From assembly GCF_013167455.1 (NCBI RefSeq), contig NZ_CP038328.1: a DNA stretch of 64,000 bases. One strand, 5' to 3'. The DNA comes from Escherichia coli O157:H7 (lineage in GTDB: Bacteria > Pseudomonadota > Gammaproteobacteria > Enterobacterales > Enterobacteriaceae). This document shows, piece by piece, positions 26,701-29,700 of this stretch. Made by a program: the position numbers. Position 1 is the first letter of the stretch; each line of letters begins with the position of its first letter.

Positions 26701-29700
26701 CTCTGGATGGTACCGGACGAACCAACGGTCAGGATGTAAATATGCGTGGCTATGATCATCGCGGCGTGCTGGTTCTTGTCGATGGTGTTCGTCAGGGAAC
26801 GGATACCGGACACCTGAATGGCACTTTTCTCGATCCGGCGCTGATCAAGCGTGTTGAGATTGTTCGTGGACCTTCAGCATTACTGTATGGCAGTGGCGCG
26901 CTGGGTGGAGTGATCTCCTACGATACGGTCGATGCAAAAGATTTATTGCAGGAAGGACAAAGCAGTGGTTTTCGTGTCTTTGGTACTGGCGGCACGGGGG
27001 ACCATAGCCTGGGATTAGGCGCGAGCGCGTTTGGGCGAACTGAAAATCTGGATGGTATTGTGGCCTGGTCCAGTCGCGATCGGGGTGATTTACGCCAGAG
27101 CAATGGTGAAACCGCGCCGAATGACGAGTCCATTAATAACATGCTGGCGAAAGGGACCTGGCAAATTGATTCAGCCCAGTCTCTGAGCGGTTTAGTGCGT
27201 TACTACAACAACGACGCGCGTGAACCAAAAAATCCGCAGACCGTTGAGGCTTCTGAAAGCAGCAACCCGATGGTTGATCGTTCAACAATTCAACGCGATG
27301 CGCAGCTTTCTTATAAACTCGCCCCGCAGGGCAACGACTGGTTAAATGCAGATGCAAAAATTTATTGGTCGGAAGTCCGTATTAATGCGCAAAACACGGG
27401 GAGTTCCGGCGAGTATCGTGAACAGATAACAAAAGGAGCCAGGCTGGAGAACCGTTCCACTCTCTTTGCCGACAGTTTCGCTTCTCACTTACTGACATAT
27501 GGCGGTGAGTATTATCGTCAGGAACAACATCCGGGCGGCGCGACGACGGGCTTCCCGCAAGCAAAAATCGATTTTAGCTCCGGCTGGCTACAGGATGAGA
27601 TCACCTTACGCGATCTGCCGATTACCCTGCTTGGCGGAACCCGCTATGACAGTTATCGCGGTAGCAGTGACGGTTACAAAGATGTTGATGCCGACAAATG
27701 GTCATCTCGTGCGGGGATGACTATCAATCCGACTAACTGGCTGATGTTATTTGGCTCATATGCCCAGGCATTCCGCGCCCCGACGATGGGCGAAATGTAT
27801 AACGATTCTAAGCACTTCTCGATTGGTCGCTTCTATACCAACTATTGGGTGCCAAACCCGAACTTACGTCCGGAAACTAACGAAACTCAGGAGTACGGTT
27901 TTGGGCTGCGTTTTGATGACCTGATGTTGTCCAATGATGCTCTGGAATTTAAAGCCAGCTACTTTGATACCAAAGCGAAGGATTACATCTCCACGACCGT
28001 CGATTTCGCGGCGGCGACGACTATGTCGTATAACGTCCCGAACGCCAAAATCTGGGGCTGGGATGTGATGACGAAATATACCACTGATCTGTTTAGCCTT
28101 GATGTGGCCTATAACCGTACCCGCGGCAAAGACACCGATACCGGCGAATACATCTCCAGCATTAACCCGGATACTGTTACCAGCACTCTGAATATTCCGA
28201 TCGCTCACAGTGGCTTCTCTGTTGGGTGGGTTGGTACGTTTGCCGATCGCTCAACACATATCAGCAGCAGTTACAGCAAACAACCAGGCTATGGCGTGAA
28301 TGATTTCTACGTCAGTTATCAAGGACAACAGGCGCTCAAAGGTATGACCACTACTTTGGTGTTGGGTAACGCTTTCGACAAAGAGTACTGGTCGCCGCAA
28401 GGCATCCCACAGGATGGTCGTAACGGAAAAATTTTCGTGAGTTATCAATGGTAATCATCTGCCCCGATATTTCGGGGCATTTATCTGGAAGGAAGAGAGA
28501 CAATGAACCACTACACACGCTGGCTTGAGTTAAAAGAACAAAATCCCGGAAAGTACGCGCGTGACATCGCAGGGTTAATGAATATTAGAGAAGCAGAACT
28601 GGCATTTGCACGCGTCACGCACGATGCGTGGCGGATGCACGGCGATATCCGTGAAATTCTGGCGGCGCTCGAAAGTGTTGGCGAAACCAAATGTATTTGT
28701 CGTAATGAATATGCAGTCCATGAGCAAGTTGGTACGTTCACAAACCAGCATTTGAACGGACATGCCGGATTGATCCTCAATCCGCGCGCGCTGGATTTAC
28801 GTCTGTTTCTCAATCAATGGGCCAGTGTTTTCCACATCAAAGAAAACACGGCTCGTGGCGAACGCCAGAGTATTCAGTTCTTTGATCATCAGGGCGATGC
28901 ATTACTAAAAGTTTATGCCACCGACAATACCGATATGGCGGCATGGAGTGAGCTTCTGGCACGGTTTATCACCGATGAGAATACGCCGCTTGAGTTAAAA
29001 GCCGTTGATGCGCCAGTTGTTCAAACGCGAGCCGATGCCACTGTGGTCGAGCAAGAGTGGCGGGCGATGACCGACGTTCATCAGTTTTTTACGTTGCTCA
29101 AGCGCCACAACCTGACGCGCCAACAGGCGTTCAATCTGGTGGCAGACGATTTGGCCTGCAAAGTATCCAACAGTGCGTTGGCGCAAATTCTTGAATCTGC
29201 ACAGCAGGATGGTAATGAAATCATGGTGTTTGTTGGCAACCGTGGCTGCGTACAGATTTTCACCGGTGTGGTAGAAAAAGTGGTGCCAATGAAAGGTTGG
29301 CTGAATATTTTCAACCCGACGTTTACTCTTCATCTATTAGAAGAGAGCATTGCTGAAGCCTGGGTTACCCGTAAACCGACCAGCGATGGCTACGTAACCA
29401 GTCTGGAATTGTTTGCCCATGATGGTACGCAGATAGCGCAACTTTATGGTCAACGTACAGAAGGCGAACAGGAGCAAGCGCAATGGCGTAAGCAAATTGC
29501 TTCGCTGATACCGGAAGGCGTTGCTGCATAACGTATAATTAACGGGAGGTCTGGCTATTTATTGCTGGGCCTCTTTATATTGATCAATCGTTCACACCAG
29601 ATAATCAATATGCTGATGGCGTACCAGCTCATTGATCCGCTTAAGATTGAGGATCATCATGATATTGTGTTTATGGCAGTAGAACGTTTTTAGCGATATT

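Follow-up and report, generated by a model that had tools for sequence, protein, structure and literature searches.

A G+C-rich stem-loop separates chuA from chuS

The chuAS locus was analyzed in a 64,000-nt stretch of E. coli O157:H7 DNA (contig NZ_CP038328.1), hereafter the window. The gene of the TonB-dependent haem receptor, chuA, is found on the plus strand at positions 26472–28454, as indicated by the ORF list, by TIGR01785 and by the RefSeq annotation of identical DNA. The ORF encodes 660 amino acids, matches TIGR01785 with 588 bits (E = 1.6e-176) and ends with a TAA stop codon at 28452–28454. Just upstream of chuA, an Rfam match places the shuA_thermo FourU thermometer (RF02597) at 26443–26474. 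The haem oxygenase gene chuS follows on the same strand at 28503–29531 and was assigned from the ORF list, from RefSeq and from homologues with PF05171/PF06228. A 351-nt stretch around the junction of the two genes is 100% identical to O157:H7 chromosomes, in which RefSeq annotates chuA and chuS. Past chuS, an 11-bp hairpin followed by TTATATT (29545–29574, plus strand) is the presumed chuAS terminator and was used for comparison.

The two genes are separated by a spacer of 48 nt (28455–28502) that reads TCATC-TGCCCCGA-TATT-TCGGGGCA-TTTATCTGGAAGGAAGAGAGACA. The 5-nt linker TCATC (28455–28459) connects the chuA stop codon to a stem-loop on the plus strand at 28460–28479. Its arms (28460–28467 and 28472–28479) form 8 perfect pairs, 6 of them G-C, which enclose the 4-nt loop TATT (28468–28471). 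On its 3' side the stem-loop is followed by TTTATCTGG and then by GGAAGGA. The tail TTTATCT (28480–28486) is A/U-rich and single-stranded; in Escherichia it amounts to a weak U-tract, and transcripts may end or be cleaved within it. The chuS Shine-Dalgarno sequence GGAAGGA and the start codon belong to a region (28479–28505, plus strand) that contains A-R-N repeats (AGG AAG AGA) and is marked as a small RNA (sRNA) and Hfq target by predicted duplexes and by published work (PMC4104026). From 5' to 3', the junction is therefore made of the stop codon, 5 nt, the stem-loop, the A/U-rich tail, the A-R-N-rich Shine-Dalgarno/sRNA site and AUG. The first-pass annotation had placed a small hairpin between the chuA stop codon and the chuS Shine-Dalgarno sequence; its position and sequence were correct, and with 8 bp the stem is slightly larger than described.

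The folding energy calculation suggested together with that annotation was performed and gave −16.1 kcal/mol for the isolated hairpin (z = −3.4), a stability equalled by 1 of 200 shuffled sequences. In a 220-nt context, base pairing probability was close to 1.0 for every base of the stem. Perfect hairpins of at least 8 bp with at least 6 G-C pairs are represented in the window by 16 entries (11 distinct), compared with 1.6 entries in dinucleotide shuffles, so that the chance of finding one in a given 48-nt spacer is about 1 in 1000. No Rfam 15 family covered the hairpin with e-value and gathering thresholds; the sole overlapping hit, Pseudomon-groES, was at chance level (21.6 bits versus a gathering score of 50, E = 1.1). 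An origin as a REP/BIME element or another dispersed repeat was discarded because the hairpin is unique in the 64-kb window, even with up to 3 mismatches, and is found at one place per chu-positive genome. A role on the minus strand was also discarded, since no gene lies in convergent orientation and the tail read on the minus strand is not rich in U. We found no paper that names or tests the chuA-chuS hairpin, though it is included in reporter fragments published in 2014.

Conservation of the stem-loop in E. coli and in Enterobacteriaceae

In 8 E. coli lineages the stem was invariant and variation was restricted to 2 of the 48 spacer positions, namely 28469 in the loop and 28485 in the tail. 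The coding DNA on either side varies at 6–7% of sites in the same lineages, mostly at third codon positions. Of 2235 chu-positive genomes, 2181 carry a 60-nt stretch over the spacer with at least 99% identity, whereas only 355 reach this identity over the 351-nt stretch. Judged from these comparisons, the stem is under purifying selection within E. coli.

Relatives were collected by scanning a ChuS alignment against one genome per species. This yielded 80 loci, and a chuA homologue was located directly upstream of the chuS homologue in 61 of them. Spacers of 45–53 nt, in which a hairpin of different sequence occupies the corresponding position (for instance GCCCCGG-TTCG-CCGGGGC or GGCCCGGC-ATTT-GGCCGGGCC), were found in Citrobacter, Kluyvera, Leclercia, Lelliottia, Pseudocitrobacter, Silvania, Yokenella and others. 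When the 8-pair helix was evaluated on 39 distinct Enterobacteriaceae spacers, 90.9% of the cells were paired; sliding the 3' partner by 1–3 columns lowered this to 58% or less. Compensatory double changes affected 4 of the 8 pairs (14 cells), which was matched by none of 500 shuffles, and RNAalifold recovered the helix from the same set. Column entropy was 0.45–0.63 in the stem and 0.49 in the Shine-Dalgarno region, compared with 1.12 for loop, 1.06 for linker and 0.94 for tail columns. Compensatory changes would also maintain an inverted repeat in DNA. G-U pairs outnumbered A-C combinations by 12 to 4, and by 3 to 2 without the outermost pair; in these alignments the asymmetry, small and mostly due to the outermost pair, weakly favours a plus-strand RNA over a DNA palindrome.

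The position of the element relative to both genes is also maintained. The linker between the stop codon and the stem measures 0–9 nt in all relatives, and in nearly all of them 20–24 nt separate the 3' end of the hairpin from the chuS ATG, shortened spacers included. The hairpin itself is not universal. It is reduced to 3–5 bp in the E. cloacae complex, where the spacer is 35 nt long, and among the spacers examined it is absent in E. mori, Cedecea and Atlantibacter. The GAAGGA sRNA/Shine-Dalgarno region persists where the hairpin is lost or shortened, as in E. mori, which has the site and no hairpin. The hairpin is thus dispensable in some lineages, which counts against the insulating role that we favour below.

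An sRNA target site begins at the foot of the stem-loop

The sRNA target site adjoining the hairpin is the main clue to its function. Hfq crosslinks near chuS, at a CRAC site in a fragment that contains the spacer (PMC4104026). Both RyhB and FnrS show complementarity to the Shine-Dalgarno sequence of chuS and repress a chuS fusion built on this fragment, the RyhB-chuS interaction being reported as 'data not shown', and A-R-N motifs go with Shine-Dalgarno sequences in the same study (PMC4104026). We confirmed the FnrS and RyhB sequences in an O157:H7 genome, their identities being given by Rfam. Duplexes were then predicted using RNAduplex with the single-stranded seed regions of the sRNAs, as full-length sRNAs produced meaningless long duplexes. 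Nucleotides 41–66 of FnrS are predicted to pair with positions 28479–28505 (−21.4 kcal/mol). No other FnrS site in chuAS scored as well, the next one having −17.8 kcal/mol, and the sRNA target site thus begins right where the hairpin ends on its 3' side. Nucleotides 45–60 of RyhB are predicted to pair with 28485–28500 (−15.4 kcal/mol). In the RyhB scan of chuA and chuS the spacer was not the best site, better ones being predicted elsewhere, so that pairing of RyhB with the spacer rests on the published claim.

chuA and chuS RNA levels and the search for a chuS promoter

Published RNA levels indicate that the two genes respond differently to these sRNAs. In the UPEC strain CFT073, chuA RNA is increased 362-fold in a fur mutant and 416-fold in a fur ryhB double mutant relative to the wild type, and the corresponding values for chuS are 181-fold and 446-fold (PMC7157518 Table S1). 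From these values, RyhB costs chuS RNA a factor of 2.5 (about 60% is removed) and chuA RNA a factor of 1.15, and the authors of PMC7157518 themselves state that RyhB decreases chuS and not chuA. Without RyhB the two genes are equally induced, as a single promoter would predict. In EHEC, a 10-minute pulse of AsxR, which destabilises FnrS, increased chuS and chuW mRNA, and chuA is not listed (PMC4104026). Such a divergence might also come about in the absence of the hairpin, since some cleaved mRNAs leave a stable 5' segment.

A separate chuS promoter was also considered. Two Shigella papers (PMC3660397, PMC5458455) carry forward a prediction of 1998 by which shuA and shuS each have their own iron-regulated promoter. 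A consensus scan detected no sigma-70-like site in 28200–28500. A putative Fur box lying over the chuA stop codon matched at 12 of 19 positions, no better than chance given 123 matches of this quality in the window, while the real Fur boxes match at 17 of 19 (26164) and 16 of 19 (25813) positions. Fur ChIP-seq in CFT073 showed a single chuAS peak, upstream of chuA, and none at the junction or at chuS (PMC7157518). An independent chuS promoter or Fur box was rejected on the basis of these three results.

Transcription termination at the stem-loop

The hairpin had been proposed, from the sequence alone, to be a partial terminator or a processing and stability element. As a leaky intrinsic (Rho-independent) terminator, it would stop a fixed fraction of RNA polymerases after chuA, leaving more receptor mRNA than oxygenase mRNA. 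It shares with canonical terminators a G+C-rich 8-bp stem, a tetraloop and UUU immediately 3', and it was the best terminator-like match in a consensus scan. The U-tract, UUUAUCUG, is short and interrupted (5 U in 8 nt). We calculated an approximate terminator index d of the d'Aubenton-Carafa type. The 8-bp form was marginally positive at +12.3, compared with −12.5 for the operon-end hairpin at 29545–29574, but d fell to −10.2 when the closing U-A pair was not counted. Tails are U-richer in Escherichia, Leclercia and Silvania. Across relatives the tail drifts where the stem is kept, with a median of 3 U among its first 8 nt and d > 0 in only 9 of 48 spacers. A tail that is not conserved across genera while the stem is kept suggests that selection acted on the stem and not on a terminator signal.

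The location of the stem also argues against efficient termination. The tR2 terminator, when located 8–9 bp past a stop codon, is almost fully repressed by the terminating ribosome (PMC4824070). With a linker that is short in all relatives and only 5 nt in E. coli, a ribosome terminating on chuA would by this precedent be expected to cover the 5' arm of the stem. Moreover, a PLtetO-driven chuAS::chuS-GFP fusion that extends from the chuA 5' UTR to chuS +312 is expressed (PMC4104026), so that read-through from a promoter upstream of chuA is substantial. The Tree laboratory, which owns Term-seq (EHEC Sakai, PRJNA601151) and dRNA-seq data for the strain, describes chuAS as bicistronic (PMC9002310). 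On the other side, the Shigella papers give shuA and shuS as predicted monocistronic genes (PMC3660397, PMC5458455, citing Wyckoff 1998). Equal induction of chuA and chuS in the absence of RyhB, together with the single Fur peak, is not what a leaky terminator would lead one to expect, and chuS has no Fur box or sigma-70 promoter of its own to offset termination.

The chuA-chuS hairpin thus differs from a canonical terminator in its interrupted and unconserved tail, its proximity to the stop codon, its intra-operon position and the read-through downstream of it. Termination as the main function is possible but rather unlikely. Of the two roles initially proposed, stability or processing agrees better with the results. 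The hairpin exists, is conserved and lies where it had been placed, but the terminator half is weak because the U-tail is unconserved, the stop codon is close, the reporter is read through and the operon is described as bicistronic. The same hairpin may nevertheless also terminate a minority of transcripts in Escherichia.

Discussion

The explanation that we favour, tentatively and with a probability of about 45%, is that the hairpin acts as an intercistronic 3'-end barrier or insulator, through which chuA mRNA would persist when FnrS or RyhB silence chuS. Transcription from the Fur-regulated chuA promoter would mostly read through into chuS, because the terminating ribosome masks a stem located 5 nt from the stop codon and because the tail is weakly U-rich. 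Under anaerobic or iron-sparing conditions, FnrS or RyhB would pair, together with Hfq, at the chuS ribosome-binding site, starting from the 3' foot of the hairpin. Pairing would silence chuS and lead to degradation of its RNA, and the G+C-rich stem-loop would block 3'-to-5' exonucleases so that the chuA part survives. The end of a chuA-only message would in this way be marked and protected, which would make chuA and chuS separately controllable. Accordingly, we infer that the hairpin causes the discoordination of the two RNAs and that 3' ends map to it.

This reading is favoured because the combination of a spacer structure, the same two sRNAs and a loss confined to the downstream RNA reproduces the pattern of iscRSUA. 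In the account of Desnoyers et al. 2009 given in PMC12533949, RyhB induces cleavage of the iscRSUA mRNA, a strong structure between iscR and iscS lets iscR accumulate, and FnrS acts there too. Both systems are polycistronic iron-related mRNAs in which RyhB and FnrS act where ribosomes bind the second cistron, a strong structure lies just upstream of this site and the upstream cistron is kept. At chuAS we found a stable spacer structure upstream of the sRNA site, and published tables document the discoordinate RNA levels. The difference is that the isc structure is larger and its protective effect was shown experimentally, whereas the chuA-chuS element is a minimal 8-bp stem whose role is deduced from position, conservation and RNA-seq ratios. 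Insulation would also make biological sense, since ChuS requires oxygen and the receptor also serves the anaerobic ChuW/ChuY route (PMC9002310).

Two other roles in RNA appear improbable. The hairpin could be a structural part of an Hfq/sRNA target module or could belong to the region where chuS translation is initiated. Together with the A/U-rich tail and the A-R-N repeats, the stem-loop would then serve as a landing platform for Hfq or give the ribosome-binding site a defined context. The Hfq CRAC site near chuS with its A-R-N motifs (PMC4104026), the predicted FnrS duplex that starts at the foot of the stem and the distance of 20–24 nt to the ATG, kept even in shortened spacers, are in line with such a module. 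However, this spacing may be constant just because indels are rare within homologous DNA, and E. mori retains the Shine-Dalgarno/sRNA site without any hairpin. Moreover, the predicted accessibility of the Shine-Dalgarno sequence and AUG was 0.66 for the wild type, 0.64 when either arm was disrupted and 0.50 when the hairpin was deleted. Insulation of the ribosome-binding site by the hairpin thus finds little backing, as predicted accessibility barely shifts upon its removal.

A translation-gated attenuator, in which the 5-nt gap separating stop codon and stem would tie chuS transcription to the translation of chuA, is in our view equally improbable. If this were true, a ribosome finishing chuA would mask the 5' arm and RNA polymerase would continue into chuS. 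When chuA is untranslated, with the FourU thermometer closed or RyhB or Esr41 bound, the hairpin would form and either stop or cap the transcript. Every translational input of chuA would then be passed on to chuS transcription, and chuA would be shielded by this stem from chuS decay triggered by FnrS or RyhB.

Least probable of all is that the element is a protein-bound DNA palindrome or the neutral leftover of a former gene boundary: the compensatory changes with their small G-U/A-C asymmetry, the loss or shortening in several lineages and the longer Yersinia spacer with its promoter and IscR site (PMC5827684) can be accommodated, but the geometry is typical of RNA hairpins (4-nt unconstrained loop, G+C-rich stem directly past the stop codon), no Fur ChIP-seq peak lies at the junction (PMC7157518) where the Fur-like match is at chance level, and the stem is under purifying selection within E. 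coli.

The insulator reading can also be compared with the homologous Yersinia gene pair hmuR-hmuS (hemR-hemS), in which a hairpin likewise follows the receptor gene and read-through from the Fur-regulated promoter is reported (PMC5827684). The Yersinia spacer differs in its length (116–128 nt), in the unrelated sequence of its hairpin and in the presence of an internal promoter, p2, and of an IscR-binding site (PMC5827684). By comparison, the 48-nt spacer of E. coli has no room for a promoter and no promoter signal. Literature searches for a fecA-fecB stem-loop and for a hemR-hemS terminator returned nothing usable.

Intercistronic hairpins that act as stabilisers or as leaky terminators include the REP hairpin past malE in malEFG and the stem-loop past fecA in fecABCDE. 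The chuA-chuS hairpin resembles them in being a G+C-rich stem-loop directly past the first and more abundantly needed gene of a transport operon, which encodes an envelope protein, and in the stable upstream mRNA segment that it would give. It differs from the malE hairpin in that it is not a REP/BIME element, is unique in the window and belongs to no Rfam family. It is a familiar kind of intercistronic stem-loop, an ordinary piece of operon punctuation in a well-studied operon.

The chuAS operon ensures virulence-associated haem uptake, and its published post-transcriptional controls, unusually dense, comprise the FourU thermometer, Rho, CyaR, ChiX, RyhB, Esr41, FnrS and the FnrS sponge AsxR. 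Published work is divided between one transcript, in the EHEC work, and two, in the Shigella predictions, and the hairpin is the obvious physical candidate to reconcile these views. What would be gained is one missing detail of a known circuit and no new principle. The hairpin could explain how the oxygen-dependent oxygenase is switched off in anaerobiosis while the receptor stays on.

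Sequence elements around the chuAS operon

Upstream of the haem receptor gene chuA, the shuA/chuA FourU RNA thermometer was detected at 26443–26474 on the plus strand (Rfam RF02597; its 60.1 bits exceed the gathering score), where it overlaps the start codon of chuA. Within the chu region, the sites that match the Fur box best both belong to the divergent chuT-chuA promoter region, at 25813–25831 (16/19) and 26164–26182 (17/19). A possible Fur box at 28444, across the chuA stop codon, was discarded because its score of 12/19 is no better than chance (the window contains 123 matches that are just as good).

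At the other end of the operon, an 11-bp hairpin followed by TTATATT (29545–29574, plus strand) lies 14 nt 3' of the stop codon of chuS, the haem oxygenase gene. This hairpin is presumed to be the chuAS terminator; according to the terminator index, it scores no better than the internal chuA-chuS hairpin. Opposite to it lies a LuxR-type gene of 176 aa (29592–30122, minus strand), convergent to chuS. Long perfect hairpins of 12–14 bp were found at 30238–30266, 18166–18198, 41231–41262 and 35918–35948. The first of them, GATGCAGATGC...GCATCTGCATC followed by TTTCGG, is located between the LuxR-type gene and slp. In the neighboring ORF (30278–31009, minus strand, 243 aa), similarity to the Slp lipoprotein family begins only at residue 57, so the true start codon probably lies downstream of the mechanically assigned one.

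The window contains both the acid-fitness island and the chu island. Rfam matches at gathering level, all on the minus strand, were obtained for GadY (10809–10922), ES205 (16701–16772) and two AgrB antisense RNAs (35225–35308 and 35459–35543).

The receptor-oxygenase spacer in related genomes

An Enterobacteriaceae-type chuA-chuS pair was observed in locus L050, on a contig (CACSKA010000003.1) labelled Chryseobacterium sp. 18061. Between the two genes lies nearly the same spacer as in Citrobacter sp. 18056 (L045), which comes from the same project; the L050 assembly is likely contaminated or mislabelled.

In six Yersinia loci (L067, L072, L076, L081, L083 and L085), the hmuR-hmuS spacers (about 2865–3000 in each locus) are 116–128 nt long. 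A 9–12-bp hairpin, such as ATCCGGTAAT...ATTACCGGAT with TATCATTT behind it, lies in them between the receptor gene and the p2 promoter and IscR site described earlier (PMC5827684). Its sequence is unrelated to that of the E. coli hairpin; a hairpin thus follows the receptor gene in two lineages but is built from a different sequence in each.

In the E. cloacae complex and Lelliottia (L016, L018, L020, L021, L026, L031 and L046; spacers of 34–35 nt), the hairpin is cut to a 3–5-bp stem, such as TGCCC-TTCA-GGGCA, as if its inner part had been deleted. The spacers of E. mori (23 nt), Atlantibacter (21 nt), and Cedecea together with isolates RIT693 and Enterobacter sp. Ag1 (about 11 nt) contain no hairpin. 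These lineages with a reduced or absent hairpin constitute natural controls for any function of the chuA-chuS hairpin.
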